From contig CAVPXI010000015.1 in assembly GCA_963709585.1 (NCBI GenBank), positions 128,001 through 192,000 on the forward strand: a DNA stretch of 64,000 bases, read 5' to 3'. The notes under the pieces are model-generated. The model was given only the letters and a program-made list of their open reading frames with translations. It was not told the origin of the DNA and made no database searches. Source of the DNA: Candidatus Dormiibacterota bacterium (GTDB lineage Bacteria; Chloroflexota; Dormibacteria; Aeolococcales; Aeolococcaceae). Made by a program: the position numbers and the translations under genes. Position 1 is the stretch's first letter, and every line of letters begins with the position of its first letter. Positions 24,152 through 48,086 of the stretch are shown here, one piece after another.

Positions 24152-24373
24152 ACCCGTCTAACGCCGGGTACGGGCGTCCTCGTCTACATTCTGGCGATCT
24201 TCGTGTTCGCGCTTCTTGTATCCGCAGTTGACGTGTGGCTCGCAAATGCCCCCGAAGCCGCAACGGCGCCACTCGCGGCCTTTGGTAGGAGGACCCCAGG
24301 TACGTTCGTGGGATGTCTGGCCTGCGCGACCAACTCCTCATCTGCGGCGAACCACCTGGCCTTCACCCAATGA

Positions 24374-24832
24374 TCATGCTTTGGCGACGGCGAGCCGAGC
24401 GACGGCTCGCTCAGCGGCGTGCCGGACCCGAGCCACGGGATCTTCGCGCAAGCTCGCCACGTTGGTGAGCAGGTCCCCGACCAGGTGTCTAGCGACCACT
24501 TTGGCCGCCATCTCCCGCACTCGCCATGCATCGTCCAGGAGCGCCCCGCGGAGCGCGTCGACCGCCGTTCCGTCCCATGCCCACAGCAGACCGCGGGTCG
24601 CCCAAACGCGAAGCCACAGCATTTCGTCAGCGTGCGAGTTGCCCAGCAATATCTGCCGCGCCGAAGATCCACCCAGGATGATGATCAGCTGCCTATCGCT
24701 TCGATCGCCACCCAACAGGGCGACGCACCCCGACACGACTGCTTGCGTGCCGCGATCGGCGCATTGCGCTTCGATGCGCCGACGCGGAGTCGCTTCGGGG
24801 TGAGGTGTTGACGACATGAGCAGATCATCCAC
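24374..24832 (-). CDS. HEAT-repeat protein
   Basis: LLDDAWRVREMAAK, EDPVARVRHAA. Confidence 0.75.
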   Translation of the reverse strand: MDDLLMSSTPHPEATPRRRIEAQCADRGTQAVVSGCVALLGGDRSDRQLIIILGGSSARQILLGNSHADEMLWLRVWATRGLLWAWDGTAVDALRGALLDDAWRVREMAAKVVARHLVGDLLTNVASLREDPVARVRHAAERAVARLAVAKA

Positions 24833-24869
24833 CCCTCGATTGCTGCCCCAGAATCGGGTACTCAGCGAG

Positions 24870-25808
24870 CTACCAGTTGACCCGGTCTGTCGATAGACCC
24901 GCTCGCTGCATTCTTTCCTGAGCCTCTTTGGGAGTGAGGATCAGGAATGGGTCCTCACCGCCGAGGCTCGCCTTCTTGGCTTCGAACGCGCGCGCCCAAA
25001 GGCCTGCTGCCCAGCTCTCCTCGATCCAACCCTTAGAGGGGGCGGCGCCCCGCGCCATCAAATAACCGTCAAGGAACTCCTCAGTCTGCTCGATCGTGGC
25101 GACCTCGCCGACTGGCCACACGGCGGCGGCTTGCCCCACGATGGCGGTCTCAGGCTGCGCAACCACACTGTCCCAGTCATGCACTGCGAGGAGTTTGTCG
25201 CCGTGCCACTGCAGATTCCCTGAGTAGTAGTCACCATGACCGACAACACAGGGCGACGCAATGCCGAGCAGGCGGGCCCGCGCCGACCGAGCGATGTCGT
25301 CGAGCCAAGGGTCGCCTTCATGAGCGTTCAGGTCACCGTCGCGATCGTCGGGCTCGGGCCAGAGCGCTTCGTCGCCGCGATCCCATCCAACCCACGGTGG
25401 TGACGGCGCCAGCGTTCCGATGTCGGACGGTGACGGCGCCGATCGAACCAGCAAGGCCAATCCCTCGGCGAAGCGCCGCGCCATCGGCACGTTAGGGGCC
25501 TGACCGCCGCCCTCAACCAACTGCTCAGCCGATAGTGCATAGCCGTCACCCCATCTGTCCGGGCCGACGAGCAGTTCCGGCGCCGGAAAGCCGGACGCGA
25601 ACAGTGCCCGCTGAACCTGAGCGCAAGCAACTAGGCGATCTTGCCATTCGCGGGCCTTCACCACGATCCGGCGACCGTTGAACAACTCGACGCCTACCAC
25701 TTGCGAAAGGTAGCCGCCCTCGAACAACGTCGCCGCCGGCCCAGATCCGAAGGACTCGACGCACCACGCTGTAATCGCGTTTGGCGTGATATTGGGGCGG
25801 CGCTGCAT
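24870..25808 (-). CDS. Aminoglycoside phosphotransferase-like kinase
   Basis: VVK, HGDYYSGN, HDWD. Confidence 0.8.
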   Translation of the reverse strand: MQRRPNITPNAITAWCVESFGSGPAATLFEGGYLSQVVGVELFNGRRIVVKAREWQDRLVACAQVQRALFASGFPAPELLVGPDRWGDGYALSAEQLVEGGGQAPNVPMARRFAEGLALLVRSAPSPSDIGTLAPSPPWVGWDRGDEALWPEPDDRDGDLNAHEGDPWLDDIARSARARLLGIASPCVVGHGDYYSGNLQWHGDKLLAVHDWDSVVAQPETAIVGQAAAVWPVGEVATIEQTEEFLDGYLMARGAAPSKGWIEESWAAGLWARAFEAKKASLGGEDPFLILTPKEAQERMQRAGLSTDRVNW

Positions 25809-25923
25809 CGCTTCATATTGCCTGCGGTGAAAGCAGGTGTGGAATCACCGAGAAAGTAATCTCCGCGCTTGCACGCTCCCAGCCACCCGACGCCTGGCCA
25901 ATTCGGCTGGTGACGGGTCGCCC

Positions 25924-26472
25924 TTATAGGACGAAGGGCACGAGCATCTTGGTCGAGCGGCTATACGCCGGGTAAGTGTCGGGGAACTGGTCGGTCAGGT
26001 TGCGCTCCTCGATGGTCGCGCTATAGACGAAGTAGACCCCGGCCAGGGCCACGGCGATCAGCCAAGCCCAGCTGAGCGCCACGGCAGTGCCCACGCCAGC
26101 GACCAGGATGCCAGAGTAGATGGGATGGCGGACCAGACGATAGGGACCGCTGGTCACCAGGTCCGGGTCATCCTTCTGTGACATTGGGGTGCCCCAGTTG
26201 CGCCCGATGTTGATGCGGGCCCATACGGCGAACCCCAGTCCGACCGCGAAGAGCACGAGCCCGAGGCCAGCGCGCCACGGATCCGAGTTGAGGCCGTTGT
26301 TTTGGAAGGCCCCGAAGCGGAACAAGATGATCGCAAGGACGAAGATTACCGCCCTGATGCGCAGCTCGCGGGACCAAGCGACGCGCTCCCTCTTCATCGA
26401 GAAGGCTGCCACGAGCCAGTAGGTCCAGAATACGAGCCACCCTACGGCGAAGACGATTTCGACGGCGGACAT
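25924..26472 (-). CDS. Isoprenylcysteine carboxylmethyltransferase family protein
   Basis: LVTSGPYRLVRHPIYSG, EE..L, YPAY. Confidence 0.9.
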   Translation of the reverse strand: MSAVEIVFAVGWLVFWTYWLVAAFSMKRERVAWSRELRIRAVIFVLAIILFRFGAFQNNGLNSDPWRAGLGLVLFAVGLGFAVWARINIGRNWGTPMSQKDDPDLVTSGPYRLVRHPIYSGILVAGVGTAVALSWAWLIAVALAGVYFVYSATIEERNLTDQFPDTYPAYSRSTKMLVPFVL

Positions 26473-26838
26473 GCGACTTCTACCATACCCGGCGATATGC
26501 CGCGAGGAGGCGCAAGGTATGGGGTCGTGGCAGAACGCGCGAGAAGCTGCTCCTCTGTGCCGCGCGCTGCTAGCGCGTTGCCGATTTCTACCTAGCGTTC
26601 GCTAACCGCGATCATCATCGTCCGCCGGATCATCAGTGGAAGGCTGGCAGCGTTACCGTGGTCCCCGAGCTTCAGGTACATCACGGACCTACCATATTGG
26701 AGCAGCGAATGACCGGGCGGACGTGTAATCCCCCGACGATGGCTATCGTGGACGCCGAGCGACTTCGCCAAATCGGACCGCCCTCCCTGGAGCGAGCATG
26801 AGTGTCACCCTCCCCGCGGATCCTGTCACCACAAACAT

Positions 26839-27795: not shown

Positions 27796-28679
27796 CCGCG
27801 GTCACGACCACCCAGGCGCATGTCGGCACGGCGCCCAGCCCCCCGCCCCTGCGCTCGTCGTTCACCTCTTCCCGGATCGCTTTCGGTGCGATGCTCCTGC
27901 GCGATCTGGTCGTGTTGAAGAAGCGGCTGCGTGAGTTCATTCCGCGCACGGTGATCCAGCCGTTCCTGCTTTGCTTCGTCTTCCTCTACGTCTTTCCGAC
28001 CATCGGTCAAGGAGTTGGCGGTGGCCATGGCGCAGCAGGAGAGTCGGCGTTCGCCACGATCCTGGTCGCGGGCGTCGTCGGTCTCTCGATCATGTTCCAG
28101 GGGATTCAGGCGGTGGCGCTGCCGATGGTCCAGGAGTTCGGCTACACAAAGGAGATCGAGGACCGCGTGCTCGCGCCGCTTCCCGTGTCGCTCGTCGCAA
28201 TCGAGAAGGTCCTGTTCGGGGCGATCCAGGGCCTGCTTGCGGCGGCGATCGTATTCCCGATAGCGGCTGTCGTCCACGCGACTGGGGTGCACATCAACCT
28301 CCAAGTGCACTGGCTCGAGTTGATCACACTGATTCCGCTCAGTTGCATCGCCTGTTCATCGCTGGGCCTGACGTTCGGCACGATCTTCGACCCGCGGACG
28401 GTGCCCTTGCTCTTCGGGATCATCATCCTTCCGCTGACGTTTCTCGGCGGAACGTACTACTCCTGGACCACGCTCGCGCCGGTGACGATCGGCGGGTTCC
28501 ACTGGTTGCAGATCCTCGTGCTCGTCAATCCGTTGATCTACATCAACGAGGGAATGCGCGGCGCGCTGACAAGTGCGCCGCACATGTCGCTCTGGGTGGT
28601 GTACCCGGTGCTGCTGGGATTCAGCGCGCTCTTCCTCTGGACTGGGACGCGCAACTTCCGGCGCCGTGTGATCAGCTGA
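27792..28679 (+). CDS. ABC-2 permease (DrrB-like)
   Basis: About 6 TM helices, EIEDRVLAP, NPLIY; ATGA overlap. Confidence 0.9.
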   Translation: MTAVTTTQAHVGTAPSPPPLRSSFTSSRIAFGAMLLRDLVVLKKRLREFIPRTVIQPFLLCFVFLYVFPTIGQGVGGGHGAAGESAFATILVAGVVGLSIMFQGIQAVALPMVQEFGYTKEIEDRVLAPLPVSLVAIEKVLFGAIQGLLAAAIVFPIAAVVHATGVHINLQVHWLELITLIPLSCIACSSLGLTFGTIFDPRTVPLLFGIIILPLTFLGGTYYSWTTLAPVTIGGFHWLQILVLVNPLIYINEGMRGALTSAPHMSLWVVYPVLLGFSALFLWTGTRNFRRRVIS

Positions 28680-28717
28680 TGCGGGGAGGACGTCCCCCTT
28701 TCTAGCCGGTACGACAG

Positions 28718-28795
28718 GCTCACAAGGTGCAGCGTTGTATCCAAGATGATGGTGCCGAGGGACAGGATCGAACTTGTCGACACCAGGTTTTTCAG
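28718..28795 (-). repeat. att site: duplicated tRNA-Phe 3' half plus downstream flank
   Basis: 28750-28795 matches 48011-48055 with 1 mismatch and 1 inserted base; 28718-28749 matches 47980-48010 (26/32 by eye). Confidence 0.9.
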
Positions 28796-28829
28796 CCGCG
28801 CGAACTGACGTTCGCCGACGTCCTTAGAG

Positions 28830-28923
28830 GTCCACCATCGTATTCAGGCGGGCTGTCATGAGGCGGTTAGCGTCCACCATTTATCATCAACGTCCACGCA
28901 CGAAGGTGTCAGCTAAGGTGTCA
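28830..28923. repeat. Putative integrase arm-type/accessory binding sites
   Basis: GTCCAC x3 (28830, 28872, 28892) and AAGGTGTCA x2 (28903, 28915), just inside att. Confidence 0.45.
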
Positions 28924-29056
28924 TTTGAGGACGGCACCGTTTCGCCGGATGCCCTGCTTGACGACGACTATCTGGACTGTGTAATCGCCTCTGGTGACAT
29001 AACGCTCGTGTGCGCCACCATCACGTTCTTCGGCCCGCTCTGTCACCCTAAAAGCC

Positions 29057-29560
29057 GTGGAGCTCGTACACGCAGACCCGGCCGACGCGGTGGCGTTACG
29101 AGACCTGCATCTCCTTACCTGGGAGGTGACGTATCGGCCTCATGCGCCCGAGGCGTGGTACTGCGAGCGACTCGTTGCGCATTCTGTCCGCGATTGGGGC
29201 GAGATTGTGCGCTCTCAGACTGACCGAGGTGGCGGGGTACTGACCGCCAGATCCGGTGGGCGGATTGACGGCCTCTGCCAGTACGGCCCGAGTGAAGACC
29301 ATGATCACAACACCGAGGAAGTGGGACAGATCCACCGCCTTTACGTGCACCCAGCACGACAGAGAATTGGGATCGGGCGATCACTACTCACCGCGTCGGT
29401 GGGCCACCTTCGCCAAGGCGGCGCGCACACAGCGACCCTGTGGGTTCTCGAGACGGATCAGGGCGCCAGGGCCTTCTACGAACGACTGGGCTGGAAACCC
29501 GACGGAACCCGCCAAACTCATCCGCCCACCGACCTCCGCTACCGACTGCCTCTCCGCTGA
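29057..29560 (+). CDS. GNAT acetyltransferase
   Basis: LYVHPARQRIGIGRSL, LWVLE..ARAFYERLGW. Confidence 0.9.
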   Translation: MELVHADPADAVALRDLHLLTWEVTYRPHAPEAWYCERLVAHSVRDWGEIVRSQTDRGGGVLTARSGGRIDGLCQYGPSEDHDHNTEEVGQIHRLYVHPARQRIGIGRSLLTASVGHLRQGGAHTATLWVLETDQGARAFYERLGWKPDGTRQTHPPTDLRYRLPLR

Positions 29561-29582
29561 GGGGGGCTGGTTGAGCTTTAGC

Positions 29583-29607
29583 CTCTGGCGACTTTGGCGG
29601 ACCCTGG
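29583..29607 (+). repeat. Cassette-boundary site
   Basis: CTCTGG-CGACTTTGGCGGACC-CTGG. Confidence 0.55.
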
Positions 29608-29686
29608 CCTGCAGAAGGTAACTCGCACCTGGCCCGCTTGGCCTCGCGGCTATCGGGGGCCCTCGTCTCAGCGTCATGCTTGGTAC

Positions 29687-29947
29687 GTGCGGCATGCAAC
29701 GCAGGAAGACCTTGATCAGGTCGAGGCACTACTGGTGGAGCTCCGCAAGCTTCCCCAGTTGCGAGAGCGCAAGCGTGGTTACTTCTCGAGGGACTCCCGG
29801 GCGTTCCTTCATTTCCACGAAGACGCCGGCGACCTTTACGTCGACGTGAGACTCGACAGCGCGTTCCGTCGCGCGAGGGTCACCAGCGGCACGGAACAGG
29901 CCGATCTTCTCGCACGGGTGCGCAGGGCACTCCAGTCGACCTCTTGA
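29687..29947 (+). CDS. Small hypothetical protein
   Basis: VRHAT..RAFLHFHED..YVDVRL; CATGCT -10-like hexamer just upstream. Confidence 0.7.
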   Translation: MRHATQEDLDQVEALLVELRKLPQLRERKRGYFSRDSRAFLHFHEDAGDLYVDVRLDSAFRRARVTSGTEQADLLARVRRALQSTS

Positions 29948-30175
29948 CTTGCCGGAGCGAGCTTCCACGAGCGGAATAGCGCCGTAACGGTGGGACGCTA
30001 ATGCCGCTGATTAGTCCGTCTAACCCCGTTCGAGCTGTTTGACGGTCCGCAACCACAGATTGGGTCGGCAAGCGGTCGCCCGGGGTGGCGAACGCGGTCG
30101 TCAAGAGACATTGGCGAATGCTGGCCTGCGCGAGGATCCCGTCCTCTTCGTGGTCCGAAAAAATGATGTACTTGC

Positions 30176-30916
30176 TCAGCTTGAAGAGCGTTGCGCCCGG
30201 GGTGGCATCGCGCACCAAGCGCTTCCCGTCCACCAGTAGTTGCCGTCGGGCGAGCGGAGAGCGTTATCGGGCACCGCGGCGGTGGCGCTTACCCACACAT
30301 TGCCGTTCCACCACATGCGGTCAGTCACGCTCATCCAGGTATCGGCATTCCGCCACCACGTCCCATCGGGAGACATGACGTAGCTTGGTGCGAGACCGGC
30401 GAGAATCGTGCGCTTGACATCGCGATTGGAATAGGCATTGGCAATGAACAAGCACACCACGAAAGTGCTGGCTGGTAGCCACCACAAGATCGCCCCGTAC
30501 GCGGTCGGGCCGGTCGTCGGGAAGAGCCAGGAAGAGACGCCCCATGCGAGCGATTCCGGAATCACAAAGGCCATTCCAAGCCAAAGCTTGGCTGCTGGGG
30601 TTGCAGTGAGCCCCTGCCAGAACACGTGTGACTGCGCGGGGTGCGGCCTTCCAGCCGTCACGATGAATGCGAGGCCGTACGCAGTTGCGAGAACCGCCAA
30701 CGTGACGTCAACGGCGACAAAAGGGGTGCCGAGGACGGCTGCCGTAACGCGCGCCGCTGGCGCCTCAAAAAGCGATGCGAGAAGCACTCCGTAGGCCAGT
30801 GCATGAGGAACTCTCGGCCAGAACCGTGGCCTCCGCCCGGTCGGTACCCTCCAAGGTACCCGGCGCCATCTCGCCCTCGGCGGCGCGACCAGCCCAAGGT
30901 GAGTCTCCGCATCCAT
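30176..30916 (-). CDS. Membrane protein with Trp-rich SPDGxxWW repeats
   Basis: 4 TM helices, then SPDGTWW..MWWNG..SPDGNYWWTG. Confidence 0.7.
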   Translation of the reverse strand: MDAETHLGLVAPPRARWRRVPWRVPTGRRPRFWPRVPHALAYGVLLASLFEAPAARVTAAVLGTPFVAVDVTLAVLATAYGLAFIVTAGRPHPAQSHVFWQGLTATPAAKLWLGMAFVIPESLAWGVSSWLFPTTGPTAYGAILWWLPASTFVVCLFIANAYSNRDVKRTILAGLAPSYVMSPDGTWWRNADTWMSVTDRMWWNGNVWVSATAAVPDNALRSPDGNYWWTGSAWCAMPPRAQRSSS

Positions 30917-31012
30917 CCCTGTCAGCGTAGCCGCCTGACCATCAGAAGTCATGGGGGCTCGGCTGCCCATCCCGGTCCATGATTGCCGTAAGGGCCGAGA
31001 ACTGACCTTCGG

Positions 31013-31037
31013 CTCTGGGTACATTGGCGGATGCTGC
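31013..31037 (+). repeat. Cassette-boundary site
   Basis: CTCTGG-GTACATTGGCGGATG-CTGC. Confidence 0.55.
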
Positions 31038-31345
31038 CGTGCGCGAGTGACATCTCCCCGGGAGATATGTCTCAGGATATCGACCGTTCCAGCGCCGCGT
31101 TTCGCGCCGCGATTCGAAATCAGAAAAGCGCGAGCTGGCCAATCCAGCCGTCGTGGTCGTCCAGTCCGTACCTGTGGATGACCGACGACCGGGACGGCGA
31201 CCGTCGTCCAACCTTGCCCTCAGGCCAGCTTGCAGCTCGTCTCGGCGGGTGGCTCCAGCGACGAAGTTGCAGGATGGGCTGGGCTTTCCAGGAACCGGCG
31301 CGAAGCCAGAGAGGGGACCCCCGTGACGTGGCAGAGCGGCTAGCA

Positions 31346-31750
31346 CTACGGGGTCTCTACGACACAGTTACTCAGCAAGACTCCCGACGAGAGGCGCTGT
31401 GCGTTGGCACCTTCCGTCACCGCCGTCACCGTGTTCCCGGTATGAATCGTCGCCGAGTGAGGTTCCAACTGGCATAGGGTCTTCAAACCGCTCAAAGTTT
31501 GGAATTCGAGAATCAAACCTCCGGCTCCCCTGTACACAGAGGCAACTGGTCCTCGCACCAGCAGTGTGACTTCCCTGAAATCGGAATAGAACTCGTCGGC
31601 CTTCATCGCTTGAGCCAGTTGGTCGGGTGTTACCTGACGGGCGCTCAGGGTGCCTACCCCATACGAATCGCCGGCGAAGAATGAAATCGCAGCGACTCCA
31701 ACCAGCGCACCCAGGATGGTAACCAGGATCAGAAGTCGTCCCATATTCAT
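31346..31750 (-). CDS. Membrane-anchored OB-fold-like protein
   Basis: N-terminal TM helix; VTPDQL..LLVRGPVASV..GNTVTAV pattern resembles tRNA_anti-like OB proteins. Confidence 0.55.
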   Translation of the reverse strand: MNMGRLLILVTILGALVGVAAISFFAGDSYGVGTLSARQVTPDQLAQAMKADEFYSDFREVTLLVRGPVASVYRGAGGLILEFQTLSGLKTLCQLEPHSATIHTGNTVTAVTEGANAQRLSSGVLLSNCVVETP

Positions 31751-31923
31751 TTCGGTCTCTGCCTCGTCTTTCCGTCCATCGGGAAAGACAACGTTCGATG
31801 TGGTCGACTGGTTATAGGACTTGAGGGGGAAGACGTTGGTCAGTGACTACCACGCTCGCGCATTCAGAATCGCAGACGGGCGAGATGGGCATCTCGCGCG
31901 AATAGCGGCGAGCGTGCCAAACG

Positions 31924-31952
31924 CTCTAGGAACAAACTCGTACGCTGGGGTG
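31924..31952 (+). repeat. Cassette-boundary site
   Basis: CTCTAG-GAACAAACTCGTACG-CTGGGGTG. Confidence 0.6.
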
Positions 31953-32296
31953 GCCGATCGTGCTCGGTCTGGGGGGCCGACGATCCATTCGCACGGCGCG
32001 CCGGCGACGGAGTGAGGGAGCTCGCAGGGCCTGCAGTCGGTCGGTAGTTGGCCAGTTGAAAGAGGGCCGGGCCAAAGCCCTGCGGACGTACCAGCAGGAG
32101 GTCGTCACTCCAGGGTTGAGAGGGATGTTTTTGCCTTTTGCCCGGCCCAGGCCACCAGCATAGGCGGATTGGCGAGACTTAATTTTGGGGCCAACTCGCG
32201 TTCTGCCTAGACCACTGGTCGATGGTCGGTGAGCGCATCTGCTGCCGGCGCCACGCCAGCACCATCGTCGCGCTGGGTGCCCAGTCCAAGATCGGC

Positions 32297-32325
32297 CTCT
32301 GGTGTGTTAATTGCACGCTGGGGTG
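32297..32325 (+). repeat. Cassette-boundary site
   Basis: CTCTGGTGTGTTAATTGCACGCTGGGGTG; 27/29 identical to 33710-33738. Confidence 0.8.
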
Positions 32326-32364
32326 CGCGAGGCTCTCGTAACACGACCCGATGACTGCCGGCGG

Positions 32365-33534: not shown

Positions 33535-33709
33535 ACCGCCATCCTCCATGCATTCGCGCCGGCCGCGTCGCGGCAAACGACGGCAGAGGTGTGGGCTGAA
33601 CTTGTCGCGGTGACCCTGCGGTCAGCAGTTTTGGAGAACCTCGTGCTTCTCTGCCAAGGCTTACTCGTACGCCCGATTGAGCCCGGCAACGCCGCCGCCA
33701 TTCGATCGG

Positions 33710-33738
33710 CTCTGGTGTGCAAATTGCACGCTGGGGTG
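33710..33738 (+). repeat. Cassette-boundary site
   Basis: CTCTGGTGTGCAAATTGCACGCTGGGGTG. Confidence 0.8.
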
Positions 33739-33900
33739 AGCATGCCTTCTGGCATCTGATGCGTCGAACCTGTGAGCGAAAGCGATTAGCTCGCGTCGGC
33801 CAACCGTGAGCGTCCGTCGCCGCGGCCCGACCCGCAGCAGGCGCCCACTACATGTGTCCCGCCACATGGAGGCCGATGTCTGCGCTCGCAAGCTGCCGGA

Positions 33901-34656: not shown

Positions 34657-34828
34657 TATTTCCTCTACTTCGTGGTGAGCCACGTTGGAAACATGTTGAT
34701 GCGGTGGCCACCACGACGCTCCCAAAGTATGAGAGCTAGGCGTGGACCCTAGGTGATCGCTACCGCCCCGTCCGCCTCACTCTTCCAAGCTCGCTCGGCG
34801 GGGCGCAAATTCGACTATGAAGACGTTC

Positions 34829-34862
34829 CTCAGGTGTGTTCGTTGCGCGATGGGATGCGCGA
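34829..34862 (+). repeat. Cassette-boundary site
   Basis: CTCAGGTGTGTTCGTTGCGCGATGGGATGCGCGA; 28/34 to 32297-32330. Confidence 0.7.
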
Positions 34863-34947
34863 CGATGGTTCTTTCGGCTCACTCTAACTCGGCTAGAGCA
34901 CCGTTGCAACCGTTACGCCAGGACGCTGAATTCGAATACTGCGTCTG

Positions 34948-35562
34948 TCACCAGATCAAGGGCACCAGGCGTTTGTGGGCTGCCGCGTAGTCGCTATAGC
35001 CGTTACCGAGGTTCTGCATCAGTGCCCGCTCCTCTACTCGAATGCGGAACACAAGACCGCTTGCAACGACGACGGTGAGGACCACCAGCGAATACCAGTT
35101 GCCGATGAACAAGCCCACAGCCATGAAGACTAGGAGCAGCCCAGTATAGCTTGGGTGCCGGACCACCCTGTAAGGCCCGTCGGTGATCACCGGCTGATCA
35201 CTGCTCGTCTGCACGGTGAATGTGAAGTACCGACCCAATGTACGAAAGCTCCAGAGCCGCAGGGAGATGCCGCCCCAGAACAGCGCGAGCGCGATCCAGT
35301 CAGCGAGCGCGGCGGGCCGGATCGTCGCCGACTGTGCCACCCCCGGGAGCAAGCTCGCCACGAGTGCGCCGACCCCGACGATGAGCCGAAAGAGGACCTC
35401 GCTGCCCCAGTTGGCCTTCACTCCTTCGGGTCGGTGGGTGACGCTCTGGCGCAGTTCCAGCACCACCCAGATTGCCGCTGTGCCGAGCAGGATCCAGCGG
35501 AAGACCGGTGATGTCGCTGCCAACGGGTTCACAGGCAAGTCCCAGGTTCGGTGCTCCTGCAA
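34948..35562 (-). CDS. Isoprenylcysteine carboxylmethyltransferase family protein
   Basis: LGRYFT, GPYRVVRHPSYTG, RIRVEERAL; start uncertain. Confidence 0.88.
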   Translation of the reverse strand: MQEHRTWDLPVNPLAATSPVFRWILLGTAAIWVVLELRQSVTHRPEGVKANWGSEVLFRLIVGVGALVASLLPGVAQSATIRPAALADWIALALFWGGISLRLWSFRTLGRYFTFTVQTSSDQPVITDGPYRVVRHPSYTGLLLVFMAVGLFIGNWYSLVVLTVVVASGLVFRIRVEERALMQNLGNGYSDYAAAHKRLVPLIW

Positions 35563-35897
35563 AACCGTCGCCTTCGTAGCGGTTGCCTCGGGACTAATGC
35601 CTGACCTTGCACCGCTGAGTCAGGTGCCGCCTCGACCAACGCGGCCCACGTTGTTCTCTGCTGATAAGCCGGGTATTCATTGGGAGGCTTCATCGCGACG
35701 TTGGCCGGCAGGTCGGTCGTGTCCGTCGTGGTTGCTGCGAAGACGCGGGTTCAGATGCGCCCGCGAAGCTTGCTGCTGCGTCGAACACGCCCTTACTCCG
35801 CGACCGCGCGCAGAACGTCGACGCGTGATGCCCGGATGGCGACAGCTGCGAGGAGGCCGAAGCACGCTGCGGCGGCGGCATAAAGGAGCATCAGCAC

Positions 35898-36377
35898 CTA
35901 CGACTCTCCCGTATTTCGTTCCAGCAGGACGAGAGGAATCACGCGCGTGATGTGCCGCTGGGACACGTCGTATCGACCCCGCGCGCCCGGGTGCATGATC
36001 GGAGCCAAACCCATGTTGTGGCGGTTGACGAGCGGCCACAGCCGTTCGCGCTCCTCAGCTGAGGCCACCCAGGCTCGCGCTGAGAATTTGTTTCGACGTA
36101 TTTGGACCCTCACCCCGGGATGGGCTTGAAGATTCAGCAGCCAGGACGGCGGATGATCGCTCCCTCCGTTGGAGGCCACCACGACCAACCGTTCGCCATC
36201 CTTGAGGTAGATAAGGGCGGTGGTTCGCGGTTTACCGCTTCTTCGCCCTGTGGTCGTCAGGAGCAAAGCCCGGCCAGCCACTATCCGCGAGCCGATGAGT
36301 TCTCCCGAGTGGCGGTAGACGAACTGATGGAGCTTGAGGTAGGGAACTTGCAGCGTGGCCGCGGGGGTATAACGCAC
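35898..36377 (-). CDS. Deazaflavin (F420)-dependent nitroreductase family (DDN) protein
   Basis: LLLTTTGRRSGKPR, VVASNGG..HPPSWLLNL..P; start uncertain. Confidence 0.82.
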   Translation of the reverse strand: MRYTPAATLQVPYLKLHQFVYRHSGELIGSRIVAGRALLLTTTGRRSGKPRTTALIYLKDGERLVVVASNGGSDHPPSWLLNLQAHPGVRVQIRRNKFSARAWVASAEERERLWPLVNRHNMGLAPIMHPGARGRYDVSQRHITRVIPLVLLERNTGES

Positions 36378-36574
36378 TCGTCTGACTCTCTCTTGTCGAT
36401 GTCCGGCAGTCACCAATGATGATCGTGCCGCGAACGTCGCTGTCAGGGACTGCCTCGGCGGTCGTGCTCTTCGTCTCTCTGGAACACCGCGACTGCGTTC
36501 TCCAATCCAATCACGGTGGTCGGACCGGTCAAGGTCGCGATGTGGTTCCGACGCCGCGATCGGTACCACCGAGC

Positions 36575-36599
36575 CTCTGGTAACAATCTGTTACGCCAT
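36575..36599 (+). repeat. Cassette-boundary site, variant
   Basis: CTCTGG-TAACAATCTGTTACG-CCAT; first 13 nt identical to 38545-38557. Confidence 0.5.
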
Positions 36600-37199
36600 G
36601 GTGCGCGAGAGATTCCTCACGCGGCCGCAGGGCGACGACCGTGAACGTCGGCCTGTCCACGTTCACGCCGCCGGAGGCGTCCCGAGTACGCAGGACGGCG
36701 GGCAGAAACATGTACTGGCTTCGCGGTCGGGGTACGGCTGGGCCGCGTCGCCTCGGCTCTCGGCCGACCTCGGCTCGACGTCAGCCTCAGCCGCTAATAC
36801 GACTTGCTTCGCTCAACGCGCCTGGGACGCACGAACCTTCTCGGCCAACTGTGCAAATCCATCGGCCGCTCCTTCCGAGGATCCGAAGTGATCGCTCCCA
36901 TACTTTCTTAGCTGGTTGTAAATGGTGGGCGAGACATAGCCACGCTTCGGGTTGGCGCGATAGAACGCCGCCAGCAGTACAAGAGATTCGCCGACGACTT
37001 CGCGTTCGTCCGAAGACAGGCCGTCCATCTGCCACATAGTAGGTTGGCGGCCCACGCTACGGCAAGCTCGGCGGGCCGGTCTTGAAGAGGTTGTGGCCGA
37101 GCACAAAGATCAATCTGACGGCCCTGGAGAGAATCCCGGCCTACCGCCGCTGACGTCGCGCCACGCTCCAACTGGCTTGGCGCGTGGCCTCGGGGTCTT

Positions 37200-37560
37200 C
37201 ACACTCTTTAACAGCCCTGTCTTCAGTGATTACGAGGACAACTGGATCGGCGGCAATGCGACGATCAGCGACATCACGTCGTGCTACCTCGGCATCGCCC
37301 GCAACCACGTCGTCGGTGACCTTCGCGTGCTCAACAACCAGTACGCCGACCCTGATGCAATCGAGATCACCTCGAACCACATCGCCGGCGACCTGGTGTG
37401 CCGAGAGAACAGCGCCGTTTGGGATAGCTCCGAAACCTCGTCGACGAGCAACTTCCCGCGCACGCCGAAGCCCAACTCGGTCGGCGGCGAGCGGGCCGGA
37501 CAGTGCGTGCTGGCCACCAAGACGACGTTGCACGGCCATAAGGGTCCTGGTCCCTTCTGA
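37200..37560 (+). pseudogene. 3' fragment of a secreted beta-rich protein
   Basis: Coding-like EDNWIGGN..NHVVGD..DPDAIEI..NSVGGERAGQC with no plausible 5' half. Confidence 0.55.
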
Positions 37561-37574
37561 GCCAAGGGACTTAT

Positions 37575-37615
37575 GTCGAGCAGGGACGGACCGTCGCGTC
37601 CGTCCTTGCTTCGAC
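37575..37615. terminator. Strong stem-loop after the stop codon
   Basis: GTCGAGCAGGGACGGAC / GTCCGTCCTTGCTTCGAC. Confidence 0.55.
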
Positions 37616-37782
37616 GGCAGTGCGCTTCGAGGCAACTGATCGCTGGAACTTCGGGCGCCGCTCCGAGCATGTCGAAGCGCGGATAGTGAGCCCGCGCCCA
37701 CTTACTATTTCTCGATGTAGGCCGTCATCGGGGGAGGACGCCGTTGCCCTCCATCTGGGCAGCCGCTTCGGGTGAGGCCGGA

Positions 37783-37828
37783 TGACAAGGTGGCTTGACA
37801 TCCACGTGGAAGACAAGCTAACTTTACA
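37783..37828 (+). promoter_or_regulatory. Sigma70-type promoter overlapped by two XRE operator-like boxes
   Basis: TTGACA-N18-TAACTT, 7 nt before ATG; GACAAG-N4-CTTGACA and GACAAG-N4-CTTTACA. Confidence 0.6.
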
Positions 37829-37831
37829 TCG

Positions 37832-38038
37832 ATGCAGAACCGGGTACGCGACCTTCGCCTCGGCAGACGCCTAACCCAGGAGGAGTTGGCCACCCGCCTG
37901 GGGGTGTCGCGTCAGACCGTCAACTCCATCGAGGTGGGTCGCTACACCCCTTCCCTGCCCCTGGCCCTCGCGCTGGCACGCTATTTCACCACCACTGTTG
38001 AGGAGATGTTCTATGACAGCCGTGCATCACTACCGTAA
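37832..38038 (+). CDS. XRE-family HTH regulator
   Basis: LTQEELA..VSRQTVNSIE.GRY.PSL. Confidence 0.93.
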   Translation: MQNRVRDLRLGRRLTQEELATRLGVSRQTVNSIEVGRYTPSLPLALALARYFTTTVEEMFYDSRASLP

Positions 38039-38399
38039 GTGGGCGGGGTCCGCCCTGATCCTCGCCTTCGGCCTAGCCGTGTTCGCGGCCTCGCTCGCTT
38101 GGGGGCACCCAGACGACGGAATCTGGGCGTTGGCGCTCTCTACTGTCTTCGCGGGCGCGCTCGCGGTCGGCGGTCGCAGCGAGTTGGTTCGCTCCATGCG
38201 TGGTGACGGTGACGAGCGCGCCGCCCACATCACCAACCTGACCAATCTCATCGTGCTCAATGTCGCCGGGCTGGCCGCCGTCGCAGGGGCGGTGGTCGAA
38301 CAGGCGAAGGGATTCCACTCCGGACCGTGGACCCTCGCATGCGTCATCGGTGGCGGCGTCTACTTCTTGGCCTTCATCGTGGTTCGCGCCATGGTATGA
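38013..38399 (+). CDS. Small 4-TM membrane protein (DUF2178-like)
   Basis: GDER motif between TM pairs; overlaps the XRE gene. Confidence 0.75.
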   Translation: MTAVHHYRKWAGSALILAFGLAVFAASLAWGHPDDGIWALALSTVFAGALAVGGRSELVRSMRGDGDERAAHITNLTNLIVLNVAGLAAVAGAVVEQAKGFHSGPWTLACVIGGGVYFLAFIVVRAMV

Positions 38400-38544
38400 C
38401 GTGAGCCCTGCTTACTCGCGTTCGGAGGCTGCCTTCTCCTGGGCGGCCGGCTTGGTGACCTTCAGTCATCGCCGCCGCTTCGTCGCCGGCACGCGCTGTT
38501 CACCGTAGTCTGGCTGCGCCCCACCACCTTCCGGCACCTCCCGG

Positions 38545-38569
38545 CTCTGGTAACAATTTGGCGCACTCG
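38545..38569 (+). repeat. Cassette-boundary site, variant
   Basis: CTCTGG-TAACAATTTGGCGCA-CTCG. Confidence 0.5.
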
Positions 38570-38650
38570 TGTGTGCCACGCCATTCACATTTGGTACCGG
38601 CGCGCGCGCCCAACGTTGGAAGGACATTTCGGGGATGCGGCAGAAGGGAG

Positions 38651-38879
38651 GACGTTCTTAAGACCCACAGGGTGGGGGCCCGCTCGGAGCGCCCCATCCC
38701 TGTAACGGAACGTCAGATCTTCGGCCGCGGAGCCCACGTCCTGTGACCACCGCAACCTCGAGCCAGCGGTACATGACGTCGGCTTCACGAAGTGGAGCGA
38801 TGACGTTGCTGTGGCGGGCAGGGACCCGTTGCAGCCGCCCCCCTACGGTCGTGATGCCCGCGACGACGTCAATCGCTTC
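38651..38879 (+). ncRNA. Candidate structured leader: three tandem long hairpins
   Basis: Arms 38651-38714, 38719-38792 and 38794-38879, each with nested stems (see findings). Confidence 0.45.
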
Positions 38880-38917
38880 GTCCCGCCGGGCTCATCGGCA
38901 TCATCGGGGGCTCGACA

Positions 38918-39523
38918 GTGAATCGACCGGAAGACCAGCGCAAGCGCAGAGACAGGAGGCCGCTCGGTCTCGTCGCCCTGATCGGCGGCACCATCGCGGC
39001 CGCCTGTCTCATCGGTTTCGGGGGCCTCGCCGCCTGGACCGTGACCACCCAGAACGCGGGCAACACCTTTGCTGCCGGCAGCGTTCACCACACCAACCTC
39101 GCCAAGCTCAACGGCGCCGGCGTGGGCACCTCCTGCACCGACCAGGCGGGCGTGTGCGGGGTCATCTTCACGCTCGCCAACGCCAAGCCGGGCAGCTCGG
39201 TCAGCGGCACCGTGCAGATCACCAACAACGCGGGCTCGCTGCCGAGCACCTTCTCGCTCAGCCTCTCGTCGTCCAGCGGCGCCCTCTGCGCCAGCCTCAA
39301 CGCCAGCATCACCGACAACGAGACCGTTGCCCAGAACTTCTACAACGGCACCCTCTCGGCGATGGGCGCGCAGAGCCTCAAGTCGAGCGCCGGCAACCTC
39401 AGCTGGCCCGCCAGCGACACCGGCACCTACACCTTCACGATCACGCTTCCCGCGAGCAGCGCCAACACCGACATGGGCCAGACCTGCACCGCGGCCTACA
39501 CCTGGACCCAGACCAACAGCTGA
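38918..39523 (+). CDS. TasA/CalY-like secreted fibre subunit with SipW-type signal peptide
   Basis: GGLA|AWT..NAGNTFAAG, NAKPG..GTVQITNN.GS, terminal YTWTQTN strand; adjacent to sipW. Confidence 0.75.
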   Translation: MNRPEDQRKRRDRRPLGLVALIGGTIAAACLIGFGGLAAWTVTTQNAGNTFAAGSVHHTNLAKLNGAGVGTSCTDQAGVCGVIFTLANAKPGSSVSGTVQITNNAGSLPSTFSLSLSSSSGALCASLNASITDNETVAQNFYNGTLSAMGAQSLKSSAGNLSWPASDTGTYTFTITLPASSANTDMGQTCTAAYTWTQTNS

Positions 39524-39541
39524 CCTAGATTCGCGAGGGGC

Positions 39542-39571
39542 AGGGAGGCCGGTCCGCCGACCGGTCTCCCT
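39542..39571 (+). terminator. Intercistronic stem-loop after the tasA-like gene
   Basis: AGGGAGGCCGGTC-CGCC-GACCGGTCTCCCT. Confidence 0.6.
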
Positions 39572-39599
39572 CGCCTGTCACCAGCTCAGGAGATCACCA

Positions 39600-40235
39600 A
39601 TGGCCATGAGCGCATCGAGCCTGCCGACCGGCGTCGCCGATGCCGGCTTGGGCTCGCTGGCGCGGCCCTCTGACGGTCCCGCCGGCGCCACACCCACAGC
39701 CACGATCCGCGCCCGACTGTGCGGCGCGCTGCGCCACGGCGGCAACCTCGCCCTGGCGGCGCTGGCCACAGTCCTGGTGGTGTTCACGTCGCTCATCGTC
39801 GCCGGAGCGGTGACCGGCCACCACTTCGAGCAGGTGATCACCGCCAGCATGGTGCCGACCATCCCGGTGGGCTCGCTGGTGGTCACCGAGCACGTGACCG
39901 CGAGCAGCCTGGTGGTTGGCAACGTGCTCGTCTTCACCAAGCCCGGCAACGTCAGTGAGGTGATCGTCCACCGCATCGCCAGCATCACCCGGGCCGATGA
40001 CGGCTCCATCCTGGTGCAGACCAAGGGCGACGCCAACCACGCGCCCGATCCCTGGCTGATCAAGCAGAGCGCCGGCGGCGCCGCCGACCGCGCCGTCTAC
40101 GTGATGCCGGGGCTGGGGACGGTCGCGTCCGAAGGGCGCAGCGTGCTCATCCTGGTGCTGCCCGCCCTGCTCATCACCTACCTGGTCAGCTGGTCGCGCC
40201 GTCGCTACCACGCCATGGTCGGGACGCAGGCCTGA
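39600..40235 (+). CDS. sipW: Signal peptidase I, SipW/ER type (S26B)
   Basis: TASMVP (Ser), IVHRI (His), TKGDAN; RBS AGGAG. Confidence 0.85.
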   Translation: MAMSASSLPTGVADAGLGSLARPSDGPAGATPTATIRARLCGALRHGGNLALAALATVLVVFTSLIVAGAVTGHHFEQVITASMVPTIPVGSLVVTEHVTASSLVVGNVLVFTKPGNVSEVIVHRIASITRADDGSILVQTKGDANHAPDPWLIKQSAGGAADRAVYVMPGLGTVASEGRSVLILVLPALLITYLVSWSRRRYHAMVGTQA

Positions 40236-40237
40236 CC

Positions 40238-41086
40238 GTGCGCGGCCGCCGCCGCTGGGCCGTCCTGCTCACCGTTGTGGTGGTGTCGCTGCTGTGCGCG
40301 CGCGGCGCGCAGGCGGCGTGGGGAGTGGTCACCAGGAACAGCGGCTCGTCGTTTGCAGCCGGGAACATCGCCGCCCCGACCGGGCTGACCGTCGCCGCGG
40401 TAGCGTCGCCGCCGTCCAACAAGCTGACCTGGACGCTGCCGCCGGCCGCCCAGCGGGGCAACGGCCAGACCGTCACCTCCAGCGTCGACGGCAGCGCCTA
40501 CTCCACCATCGCCACACTCTCCGGAGCTGCGGTCACCGCCACCGACAGCCCGGTTCTCGGCGACACGCTCTACTGCTACAAGGTCACCACCACATGGTCG
40601 CTGTGGACTGCGCCCACCGCCGCCTCGTGCCCGGCGCCGGCAGCGCCGCTCGCCGCCATCAACGCGGGAGGCGCCGCCTCAGGAACCTACGCCGCGGACA
40701 CGGGATTCTCGGCAGGGAGCACCTACAGCACGGGATCGGCCATCGACACCAGCCTGGTGCCCAACCCCGCGCCCCAGTCGGTGTACCAGACCGAGCGCTA
40801 CGGCAACTTCACGTACACCGTGTCTGGCCTGACCGCCAACGCCACCTACCACGTGCGCCTCCAGGAGGCGGAGAACTACTGGAGTGGGCCCGGCAAGCGC
40901 TCGTTCGATGTGAAGATCAATGGCGTCCAGGTGCTGTCCGGCTACGACATCTTCGCGGCCACCGGAGGGCAGTACCGGGCGATCGCGCTGACCTTCGCGA
41001 CCACCGCCGACGCCGGCGGCGCCATCGCCATCCAGTTCATCACCGTCAAGGACAACGCCAAGGTCGACGGCATCGAGATCCTCTAG
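40238..41086 (+). CDS. SipW-type secreted protein with Fn3-like and malectin domains
   Basis: AQA|AW..NSGSSFAAG; AINAGG..YAAD..VYQTERYG..VRL..AE.YW..R.FDV.ING..DIF..GIEI. Confidence 0.85.
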   Translation: MRGRRRWAVLLTVVVVSLLCARGAQAAWGVVTRNSGSSFAAGNIAAPTGLTVAAVASPPSNKLTWTLPPAAQRGNGQTVTSSVDGSAYSTIATLSGAAVTATDSPVLGDTLYCYKVTTTWSLWTAPTAASCPAPAAPLAAINAGGAASGTYAADTGFSAGSTYSTGSAIDTSLVPNPAPQSVYQTERYGNFTYTVSGLTANATYHVRLQEAENYWSGPGKRSFDVKINGVQVLSGYDIFAATGGQYRAIALTFATTADAGGAIAIQFITVKDNAKVDGIEIL

Positions 41087-41209
41087 GCTCGACTGTGACC
41101 GGTCGTGCGGCTGCGCTCAGGCTACGCTGGGCGGCGGCTCGGATGCGCGCCTGGCGCCGCGCGGGGCGGCGGGCTTGGGAGCGGCGGCCTTGCGAGCGCG
41201 CGCAGGCTT

Positions 41210-41587
41210 GTTCGGCGCGGGCGTGAACGCGCAGGGGTGGGGGGCGCGGCTCGCGGTGCGCGAGGGCGTCGAGGTGCGGGCCGAGCAGGCGCTGCAGGTC
41301 GGCCGCGTTGCGGTCGACGATCCAGTGGCCGGCGCGACGCTCCCCTCAAGCACCATGGCGGCCCAGTCGTCCTCGAGGTGATGATGCAGCGTCGGGGGCG
41401 CCGCATAGAAGGGGGGCACAGTCCAGTCGATGACCGAGAACCGACCGGGAGCGGGGGCGTCCGCGGGCAACAAATAGCGCACACGAGCTCCCGTGACGGT
41501 GACCTCGCGGCCCCCATCGGCGGGGACGATGCGAGGTCCATCCGACGTTGGGGGGGCCCATGGCCGAGATGTTACAACCGCGGTCAT
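41210..41587 (-). pseudogene. Chimeric remnant: cupin 5' half joined to a possible alpha/beta-hydrolase 3' end
   Basis: APPTLHHHLEDD..VLEG stops abruptly; AGHWIVDRNAADLQRLL follows in another frame. Confidence 0.45.
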
Positions 41588-41685
41588 GGGCGGGAACAGG
41601 TCGCTCTTTAGGGCATCCTCGTCGGCGATTCTCGTGTTGTCGCAGCGCACGAAACTCCGCTACCACTTCCAAAATGCGTTCTTGG

Positions 41686-41710
41686 CTCTGGTGTGTTAAT
41701 CGTACGCTGG
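41686..41710 (+). repeat. Cassette-boundary site
   Basis: CTCTGGTGTGTTAATCGTACGCTGG; 23/25 to 32297-32321. Confidence 0.75.
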
Positions 41711-41737
41711 CGGGGAATCCTTCGCGGCGAGACCCCC

Positions 41738-42466
41738 ATGGCGATAGCGCCGCGCCTCGGCCGAAGGCTCTTTGCGCTCATTCCAAGTCCCTGGCGCTGC
41801 AAGTTCTGCAACGCTCCATTCTGTGGACCCTATGCCGGTACCTTTCGTCGCATTGGCTACGCGCCCTCGCGCAAGAACCCGAACATCTGCGCACGCTGTA
41901 TCGAATCCGCGCCTGAAGGTGGCGCGGTCGTACCGATCAGTGTGCTCTTCGCCGACGTCCGCGGCTACACGTCTCTCACCGAGCGGACATCGAGCGTCGA
42001 GGTGACCACGCTGCTCAATCGTTTCTATGCGGCCTCGTCGCGCGCTCTGCTCGCCCACGAGGCCGTCCTGGGCCAGATCGCCGGTGACGAGGTCATGGCG
42101 TTATTCGTCCCTGGGTTTGCCGGACCAGGGTATCCGCGCAAGGCCATAGACGGTGCGTGCTCGCTACTACACGCAATGGGCTACGGAACGCCAGAAGGCA
42201 ACTGGCTCGATGTCGGCGTGGGTATCTGTTCCGGTGAGGAGTACGTCGGCAACGTCGGCGGCGGCGGGTTCAAAGACTTCACCGCTCTCGGCGACGTGAC
42301 CAACACCGCCGCTCGCCTTCAAGCGCAAACCAAAGGTGGCGAGGTCCTGCTGTGCGCAGCTACGTACAATGCGGCAGCCGACGCCTGTGCTGGCGCTGAG
42401 CTCAGACAACTCTCTCTCAAGGGGAAGGCGGAGCCGGTTGCCGGATACCTGATCCGCGTCCCGTAG
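41738..42466 (+). CDS. Class III adenylate/guanylate cyclase with N-terminal CxxC...CxxC
   Basis: CKFC..CARC, LFADVRGYT, GDEVMA, GDVTNTAARL. Confidence 0.9.
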   Translation: MAIAPRLGRRLFALIPSPWRCKFCNAPFCGPYAGTFRRIGYAPSRKNPNICARCIESAPEGGAVVPISVLFADVRGYTSLTERTSSVEVTTLLNRFYAASSRALLAHEAVLGQIAGDEVMALFVPGFAGPGYPRKAIDGACSLLHAMGYGTPEGNWLDVGVGICSGEEYVGNVGGGGFKDFTALGDVTNTAARLQAQTKGGEVLLCAATYNAAADACAGAELRQLSLKGKAEPVAGYLIRVP

Positions 42467-43039
42467 CCTGCACTGGGAGCGATATGACGGGCCAGTGGTC
42501 TCTTGCGACAACCTCCAGTCGCTCTACGGGTTGCCGTCGTCCTGGTTCGCGTTGACTAAACGGGCGCCGGACGACCTCCCTCTTGACTTGAATTGAGCAA
42601 CGAAACTTGGAGGACGCTCGCGGAGGGCGAGTATCTTGGATATCCGCGCGCGCTCTCCGCTCAAGGGCTAGTCGAAGAAAATGGGAGCTGCGCTCGCCAA
42701 CCAGGTCATGCCGCGTTAGGTTCACCAAACCTAGGCTGGAGCGTTGCGATTCACCGGTGATTGATCATGCGATTGCCTCCCTCGGCCTGACTCTCAAGTG
42801 AAAAGACACCTTCCCTGTCACCTACGCGCGGCGATCCTCGGCGGTCGAGTGAGAGGATGCTCGTGTGTAATAGAGCGATGTTCCGTGAGGACATATTGAC
42901 CTTGCGTCGACCGTAACGGGTGAGCGCCGAAGCAGATGTGGGGGTCCGTTCAGACCCGAGTTGGCTCGTTAATCTGGAGCGTGCCACCCCGGCTTAGGAA
43001 CGCGTGATCCGAGCGGATTTCAGCGACAGCCTCGGGGGT

Positions 43040-47851: not shown

Positions 47852-48010
47852 CCGCCGAGGGCTACGAAGCGCCACAGTATCGCGAGGCTACACGCCGTCG
47901 GCTGACCTGTCCGTGCGCTGGCGCACCTAACTGCGTGGTGCGTCAAGTATGTCATTGCCCAAATCTGTGGTCTTATTGCGCTCGCAAGGTGCAGACTTGT
48001 ATTCAAATGG

Positions 48011-48086
48011 TGGTGCCGAGGGACAGAATCGAACTGTCGACACCAGGTTTTTCAGACCTGTGCTCTACCAACTGAGCTACCTCGGC
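48011..48086 (-). tRNA. tRNA-Phe (GAA)
   Basis: GCCGAGGTAGCTCAGTTGG..CT-GAA-AA..GTTCGATTC..CTCGGCACCA; 76 nt cloverleaf with CCA. Confidence 0.97.

Follow-up and report, generated by a model that had tools for sequence, protein, structure and literature searches.

Co-oriented 36-bp sites between accessory genes in Candidatus Dormiibacterota as candidate recombination sites of an integron-like cassette system

The textbook case of cassette capture is the integron, whose attC sites carry inverted repeats at both ends (R'' and R') through which the single strand forms a hairpin of ~57–140 nucleotides (nt). Besides integrons, the only other example of cassette capture known to us is that of the pdif modules of Acinetobacter plasmids, whose flanking sites alternate in orientation. 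Here we analyse arrays of accessory genes separated by a conserved site of ~36 base pairs (bp) in Candidatus Dormiibacterota, starting from a stretch of 64,000 nt (the window) of contig C15 in a genome assembly of 3.52 Mb (the source genome, G000). An original prediction, made from the letters of the window alone, had proposed that these sites delimit cassettes, match neither attC nor pdif, and are acted on by a recombinase in trans. The comparisons below lend support to that proposal through the recurrence of single units, breaks of homology inside the site and the lack of an adjoining recombinase, and we consider it likely that the sites are the recombination sites of an integron-like cassette system built from different parts, with recombination inferred from comparison. 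Literature listings and the opening parts of abstracts held no match for cassette arrays in this phylum, nor for chromosomal cassette arrays that are neither integrons nor pdif.

The likeness to integrons is considerable. Long arrays of co-oriented short sites lie between mostly single and very diverse accessory genes, each unit owns one half-site per side so that a circle would carry one whole site, and arrays have a distinct first site on a fixed platform beside direct repeats, with apparent use of a secondary site elsewhere. Unlike in integrons, however, no IntI was found here (five genomes), the site has its own conserved letters and lacks R''/R' inverted repeats or a folded single strand, the genes point either way, apparently with their own expression signals and with no common promoter implied, and the platform, at the end of a tRNA island, is remote from any integrase. 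With pdif modules the arrays share accessory genes between short sites and the lack of a recombinase of their own nearby, such that the enzyme would act in trans, but the sites are not of the dif-like 11-6-11 form, as far as tested (the host dif was not found), they all point in one direction where pdif sites alternate, and they form chromosomal arrays of more than 25 units in tRNA islands. Islands of the tycheposon type, or those that grow by accretion of cis-mobilizable elements (CIMEs) and integrative and conjugative elements (ICEs), are likewise integrated at tRNA genes and delimited by a repeated tRNA 3' end, and a tandem leader copy in one sequencing run recalls them; the unit junctions here, in contrast, are not derived from tRNA, and the units are far smaller and bear the same sites in islands with unrelated integrases. 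The arrays also differ from repetitive extragenic palindromes (REP) with their RAYT transposases and from IS200/IS605-type elements, as the Y1/HUH family PF01797 was found in none of five genomes, while the same search, as a control, found it in six of 14 known genomes.

A site profile was built from the window copies and used for a genome search at E ≤ 0.05, with a looser listing to E ≤ 10. The ten strong copies named in the original prediction were all verified letter for letter on the + strand, and a loose pattern (CTCTGG-N15-CTGG, at most one mismatch) matched the window 16 times, whereas shuffled sequence gave 6.17 matches on average and never more than 12, so that none of 100 shuffles reached 16. 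The predicted 6+15+4 geometry stands, but the predicted extent of 25–34 bp was too short: a gapless alignment of 22 copies, all from the source genome, gives the full site CTCWRG-N15-CTGG-SS-TG-CGCGAGG, of ~36 bp, with conserved letters in columns 7–12 (CTCWRG) and 28–31 (CTGG), followed by SS, TG and CGCGAGG to about column 42. Among four weaker copies also proposed, the one at 28989 is a genuine N10 variant kept in four genomes, and those at 24295, 42471 and 42858 have no profile match even at E ≤ 10. Two main types of centre occur, type a (...ACATTnnCGGAYG, then CTGG-C) and type b (TGTGTTAATTGCACG, then CTGG-GG, with a right arm that starts GGTGCGC), and the type-b copies are near-identical across ~29 nt. 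The letter in column 32 goes with the type of centre: type-a sites mostly have C there (32 of 34) and type-b sites mostly G (23 of 26).

We found no structure of the attC kind in these sites. The best complement of the left arm within 100 nt downstream scored 10.6, against 10.7 for an upstream control and 12.2 for random places in the genome, and a long attC-like hairpin, for which a few copies seemed paired by eye, was rejected by this systematic test. Single-strand folding with DNA energy parameters gave −2.7 for type a (shuffles −3.1) and −3.3 for type b (shuffles −1.9). A short hairpin in the right half is mildly enriched (stems of at least five in 19% versus 9%).

The sites are restricted in place and in lineage. 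The source genome has 20 at E ≤ 0.05, in four places only: ten in the C15 window, five at C7:407.6–412.9 kb (eight at looser thresholds), four on the two contig ends of C10/C2, 98% identical to each other, and one on C8. Nineteen of the 20 lie outside predicted genes, on contigs of which 86.5% is predicted to be coding by a crude codon-bias gene caller of our own, so that the placing of the motif between genes and in accessory DNA was rightly foreseen. A strict model of the site, based on sequence only, was run on 36 genomes of the same genus and on 24 of the sister family; sites were found as co-oriented arrays in 34 of the former and in none of the latter, with counts from 0 to 87 per genome and matches clustered on one strand. 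The exact type-b pattern occurs in 35 stretches among 185,579 species (one genome each), all in records titled Candidatus Dormibacterota/Dormibacteraeota, and in at least 128 stretches of metagenome contigs, and viral contigs held no exact match to the type-a or the type-b pattern.

Orientation and spacing were counted for 108 sites with 80 inter-site units, in regions partly picked through the window's own units, and a second set comprised 78 metagenome loci. Neighbouring sites are co-oriented in 80 pairs and opposed in two in the first set, and co-oriented in 58 of 58 pairs in the second. The median spacing is ~1 kb and the arrays reach more than 25 units. Among the 80 units, 42 hold one gene, 16 none, 12 two, six three and four four, and 48 of these genes run with the site and 52 against it, which agrees with the varied gene directions and constant site direction seen in the window and noted in the prediction. 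Since genes keep 30–290 nt of upstream DNA inside the unit, they apparently carry their own expression signals. The content is diverse: in the 78 metagenome loci, 368 predicted proteins fall into 265 clusters, 202 of them singletons; gene families recur in at most eight of the loci, the commonest near sites being Rrf2, DUF1326, PpoB2, NMO, TetR and histidine kinases. One C7 unit matches the GyrI-like family and, weakly (E = 0.0044), the integron-associated Cass2 family.

The array in the window and its surroundings are listed below by position and strand. Sites A to I are matches to the site profile, and loci of relatives are named L010, L027, L036, L097 and L099.

28718–28795, no strand assigned: partial copy of the tRNA-Phe 3' end (45 nt) with 31 nt of flank; direct repeat of 47980–48055, 78 nt, 90% identity
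28737–28926, +: leader, consisting of the tRNA-Phe fragment and ~145 nt; aligned with L027, L010 and L036; two AAGGTGTCA direct repeats at 28903 and 28915
28989–29013, +: first site, a short attI-like variant, CTCTGG-N10-CTCG-KG-TG; profile E = 0.068
29057–29560, +: unit 1, GNAT acetyltransferase (Pfam PF00583)
29583–29618, +: site A, type a
29687–29947, +: unit 2, small protein of 86 amino acids (aa), no family match; 92% match within the array of another genome
30100–30135, +: site B, type a
30176–31024, −: unit 3, Trp-rich membrane protein, no family match; recurs in three genomes
31013–31048, +: site C, type a
31346–31750, −: unit 4, 134-aa protein, no family match; 90% identity in L010, where the match ends in site D
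31924–31959, +: site D, intermediate type
31969–32199, +: unit 5, no gene; holds a non-coding element that is conserved, with a core of ~140 nt present in multiple copies in the genus
32297–32332, +: site E, type b, the best copy
32365–33549, −: unit 6, EryCIII-like/UDP-glycosyltransferase (library match)
33710–33745, +: site F, type b
33901–34725, −: unit 7, 238–274-aa protein, no family match; 91–93% identity in several genomes
34829–34864, +: site G, type b
34948–36569, −: unit 8, ICMT/PEMT methyltransferase (34948–35532) and F420H2-dependent quinone reductase (35898–36377/36569); library matches
36575–36610, +: site H, whose right half (or a similar one) is the target of a contig joint
36813–38399, no strand assigned: unit 9, four small genes, one of which encodes an XRE-type regulator (37832–38038, +; library match)
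38545–38580, +: site I, right half degenerate
38918–41086, +: unit 10, a secreted protein, a SipW-type signal peptidase I (39600–40235; TIGR02228, 71.6 bits against a cut-off of 51.85) and a malectin-domain protein
41686–41710, +: site J, with an ordinary left half joined via CGCTGG to the cyclase gene and with no normal right half
41693–42466, +: adenylate/guanylate cyclase gene, flanking (library match; alignment with three genomes)
48011–48086, −: intact tRNA-Phe gene at the far end of the island (tRNA search)

Pfam and NCBIfam thus bear out the predicted gene labels for the GNAT protein, the EryCIII-like glycosyltransferase, ICMT with the F420H2 quinone reductase, the XRE regulator, the cyclase and the SipW-type peptidase, but the labels 'OB-fold', 'GNAT-like' and 'TasA' found no library match.

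When the window from 28600 to 43000 was searched against 42 genomes of the same genus, single units were found at 79–96% identity in unrelated places, often within other arrays. The GNAT unit recurs at 93–96% identity in four other genomes with different neighbours (with further partial matches), the Trp-rich membrane protein unit shows homology from site B to site C, and the glycosyltransferase unit recurs at 84% identity in two places of one genome, with the match beginning in or at the end of site E. Five contexts of the GNAT unit present five different left half-sites and unrelated flanks on its upstream side, and the common sequence begins at CTCG-SS-TG. At the far end, four of the five keep the unit's own left half, a private GGACC variant, and diverge past CTGG-CC-TG, and in the fifth the site is lost. 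The ends of the Trp-rich membrane protein unit follow the same pattern, with a common start at CT(G/C)G-SS-TG and a stop past CTGG-SS-TG. On account of these alignments of unit ends, the left half-site is to be assigned to the upstream unit and the right half to the downstream unit, as expected if a circular unit carries one whole site. Homology ends were also counted in two sets of loci. In loci partly chosen through the window units, 49 of the 226 ends are no more than 40 nt from the CTGG of a site (~2% expected), and in metagenome loci picked solely for containing a type-b site, 41 of the 221 internal ends are no more than 60 nt from a site (4% expected), clustered at both site edges.

Junctions other than those of the assembly are present in public sequencing runs, whose assembled contigs were mapped at 90% likeness. 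One joint was seen in two runs, which come from different studies, on a single contig in each case: position 41710, where the CTGG of site J ends, is followed directly by 36600, where the right half of site H begins. The two sides share no letters at the joint, and the product is a hybrid, canonical type-b site. Two contigs of a third run put a different type-a left half before the GNAT unit, with a loose end before 29011, and in one run a second copy of the leader follows 24 letters past the first. A joint that 'skips 4305' in run X3 was disregarded, its short side being 21 letters only, and a low depth over the cyclase in run X2 (0.24–3.3 against ~14 over the array) was not used, since missing cover does not count as evidence.

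The right end of the array is of another kind. The cyclase had been taken for the last cassette, but the alignment shows a flanking gene, fused to the last site, rather than a cassette. In three other genomes the gene stands in a different, shared context, with ATG GAC GAG directly before CGC TGG, and in the source genome these first three codons and the upstream DNA are replaced by the array. The array thus abuts the cyclase nine letters into the gene, at what would be a natural look-alike of the exchange zone, and the fusion, which shares only CGCTGG(CG) with the site, looks like the use of a secondary site.

The left end, which the original prediction did not describe, is a conserved starting platform. 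It consists of the tRNA-Phe 3' fragment, ~145 conserved letters with the two AAGGTGTCA repeats, ~60 variable letters and the short first site; this order aligns in four genomes, which keep the left half of the first site and differ from one another in the sequence past TG. Nine further leader copies were found in seven other loci, and eight of them are followed by a co-oriented site, including one in a genome in which the strict model scores no site. By analogy, the platform is the presumptive functional counterpart of attI. L099 (G005:C6:19001–34000) holds two leaders back to back at 3439–5275, facing away from each other, and each of them heads an array with a first site of its own.

The tRNA-Phe repeat bounds an island of 19.3 kb (28.7–48.1 kb). 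In relatives the layout runs from the leader through sites pointing to an integrase gene and then to the tRNA, with integrases of 366–396 aa in tRNA-Phe islands and of 335–340 aa in tRNA-Val islands, the latter 6.2–6.6 kb long and bounded by tRNA repeats. In the tRNA-Phe island of the source genome no integrase gene was found, nor any PF00589 match on contig C15. Other array islands lie at tRNA-Gly (C8 of the source genome) and at tRNA-Thr, the latter with an integrase fragment only, and for the C7 array no tRNA was found in the 20 kb scanned, with the nearest integrase match ~60 kb off. The island integrases fall into two clades with no mutual BLASTP hit at E ≤ 1e-5. On C8, two tandem islands occupy 75929–91987 at a tRNA-Gly(gcc), whose 3' 47–48 nt are repeated at C8:75929–75975 and C8:82766–82813; an integrase lies beside the tRNA, and the single C8 site is at 83876. 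In the window, synteny with eight other genomes breaks at 28686, just past the stop of an ABC-permease gene at 28679. In those genomes the ABC-permease gene is followed by DNA that in the source genome sits at C8:120366 downwards, and because the 3' flank of the gene lies on another contig here, the island and its array stand at a large synteny break. The idea that sites point towards the origin was dropped as unproven: in a one-contig relative the terminus was not located in the 320 kb around its expected position, where GC skew was flat and gene orientation was already flipped.

As to the enzyme, IntI (NCBIfam TIGR02249) gave no match over the cut-off in five genomes (best 47.1 bits against 265), and no serine recombinase was found in one genome with 35 sites. 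Tyrosine recombinases (PF00589) were found in 11 of 11 genomes searched and are the only class present in every one. Genes of this family of ~310–340 aa and ~350–635 aa recur across the 11 genomes, one of which scored no site by the strict model; by length and by the region of the model that they match, they are apparently conserved Xer-like genes. Two integrases were considered and set aside: one beside a small array in a relative, with orthologues in only eight of 42 genomes and none in the source genome, and that of the tRNA-Phe island, with orthologues at 80% identity or more in only seven of 42, two of them as partial or split copies. A further hint comes from where exchange appears to have occurred, namely left of column 30 for the GNAT unit, between columns 31 and 32 for the 41710–36600 joint and right of column 33 in the third run. 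Each of these points lies between the conserved A25 and T34, and their scatter, together with the linkage between column 32 and the type of centre, would fit a staggered exchange of ~8 bp matching between partners, as in tyrosine recombinases. The recombinase is thus probably a tyrosine recombinase encoded elsewhere, and the lack of a recombinase gene beside the arrays would fit such action in trans.

We propose the following model. The mobile unit would comprise a right half (about CTGG-SS-TG-CGCGAGG), one or a few genes in either direction with their own expression signals, and a left half (CTCWRG-N15), and within arrays a full 36-bp site would arise wherever the left half of a unit meets the right half of the following one. 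Exchange would take place within a zone of ~8 bp around (Y)GCTGG-SS, in columns 26–33. Arrays would grow from the fixed platform, that is, the leader with its two AAGGTGTCA repeats and the short first site, at the end of a tRNA-Phe island far from the integrase gene; they are also found inside islands at other tRNAs and, for one array of the source genome, where the 20 kb scanned hold no tRNA. The recombinase, acting in trans, would most likely be of the tyrosine class.

Several observations weigh against this model. No recombinase is linked to the sites: none was found on C15, and none of the 368 proteins of the 78 metagenome loci resembles any of 14 integrases. The integrases near some arrays are of the ordinary tRNA-island type, in two unrelated clades, and their presence across 42 genomes does not track site counts, while one genome with 12 sites has only two tyrosine recombinase genes. 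The symmetry of the site is weak, with the 7-8-7 dyad arrangement (arms in columns 19–25 and 34–40, 8-bp spacer) 0.44 complementary against a mean of 0.26 (standard deviation 0.08) over 84 arrangements; three other arrangements equal or beat it, and 7-8-7 was given up as the sole layout of the core. In the set picked for type-b sites, 180 of the 221 homology ends are not near a site. The 41710–36600 joint is seen in one contig per run, with short sides of 30 and 34 letters at 90% likeness, and the unit behind it is not certain, since several units start with similar letters; it could be the junction of a 5.1-kb circle of two units, a duplication or another order of units. All genomes compared are metagenome assemblies, in which repeats may be mis-joined.

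The alternative that survives best is a variant of our model in which the enzyme is the housekeeping Xer-type pair and the units behave like Acinetobacter pdif modules or other Xer-exploiting elements. The recurrence of two putative Xer-like gene classes in 11 genomes, judged from lengths and model regions, speaks in its favour, as do the genome with 12 sites and only these two tyrosine recombinase genes, the lack of a dedicated recombinase near the arrays, and the opening GGTGCGC of the type-b right arm, letters with which the XerC arm of E. coli dif also starts. On our reading, however, the GGTGCGC arm points away from the crossover zone, unlike the dif arm. A general 11-6-11 dif pattern with up to three mismatches found nothing in five genomes, a looser scan of the source genome gave no clear dif, and the sites are co-oriented where those of pdif modules alternate. 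We regard the Xer variant as unlikely.

Somewhat less likely again is that the units are miniature integrative elements of the CIME type, accreted in tandem by the tRNA-island integrases, with attP-like junctions. Such accretion would suit the fixed layout at tRNA-Phe, Val, Gly and Thr, in which sites point towards an integrase gene that itself faces away from the tRNA, as well as the tandem leader copy in the contigs of one run; the leader repeats AAGGTGTCA also resemble, in our reading, the type-a left half (CTCAAGGTACATT), as arm-type sites might. Yet the same sites occur in islands whose two integrase clades share no detectable similarity, they are unlike the tRNA ends that those integrases use, the C7 array has no tRNA in the 20 kb scanned and its integrase is ~60 kb away, and orthologues of the tRNA-Phe integrase are present (at 80% or more) in only seven of the 42 genomes.

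We consider it improbable that the site is a passive repeat, be it protein-binding, an insulator, REP-like or a sigma-54-type promoter, and that shuffling is the work of homologous recombination only. The ~29 nt of near-identity among type-b copies would be enough for homologous exchange, and type b has GG and GC at what we read as the spacing of sigma-54 promoters, and an RNA fold of −17 to −22 kcal/mol on the + strand. Type a, however, has neither such a fold nor the spacing, and with 48 genes running with the site and 52 against, the site is neither promoter nor terminator for the genes between sites; a sigma-54 promoter, which fits type b only, is contradicted by gene orientation. Elsewhere in the genome there are no sites, the five genomes searched yielded no Y1/RAYT gene, the CGCTGG(CG) shared at the cyclase fusion is too little for homologous exchange, and the constant geometry of abutting half-sites would be unexplained. 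Ordinary attC sites in integrase-less clusters (CALIN), suggested by co-oriented arrays of mostly single accessory genes and by the weak Cass2 match, are scarcely credible given the lack of a protein at the IntI cut-off in five genomes, of a downstream inverted partner and of a single-strand fold beyond that of shuffles, save about −3 kcal/mol in type b, and given a conserved part of ~36 bp and random gene orientation.

Some of the units call for separate remark. The core of the unit 5 element (~32044–32185) is ~90% identical in unrelated contexts, with other copies at G000:C13:146206–146343 and L097:5423–5654; it is without an open frame and has a long GGGCCGGGC...GCCCGGCCC pairing. No Rfam match was found at E ≤ 1 in 28500–32400, the only known RNA families found in the window being two tRNAs, and the element may be an unknown structured RNA. 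In unit 8, the ICMT and F420H2 quinone-reductase genes stand together here and apart in other genomes, and no site was detected in the 365 nt that separate them; the unit may be a fused pair of units after loss of a site. In unit 10, the two secreted proteins that flank the signal peptidase share an N-terminal motif, T-x-N-x-G-N/S-x-F-A-A-G, directly past the membrane span, which looks like a signal cognate to SipW, and neither protein matched the TasA-type family model. Just right of the array, a segment of the window (43047–43521) matches internal sequence of an AAA/TPR gene (C2:11355–11959, C10:33087–33686) at 86–90% identity, broken into three pieces in rearranged order; on those contigs the gene lies between two sites.

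If our reading of the sites holds, cassette capture would have evolved more than once, these arrays being a third system with unrelated sites. More tentatively, and with the possibility that it fails slightly the greater, we suggest that Candidatus Dormibacterota may possess a second, independently evolved 'integron', with a leader bearing paired repeats, a dedicated first site, double-stranded sites of 36 bp, an exchange zone of 8 bp and a recombinase encoded elsewhere, through which dozens of self-expressed genes per genome would be exchanged across the genus. Tools based on IntI and attC would probably miss such gene mobility. The short, well-defined site and the first site would offer a direct assay handle for finding the enzyme, and the system as a whole would offer a handle on the accessory genome of a widespread uncultured soil phylum.

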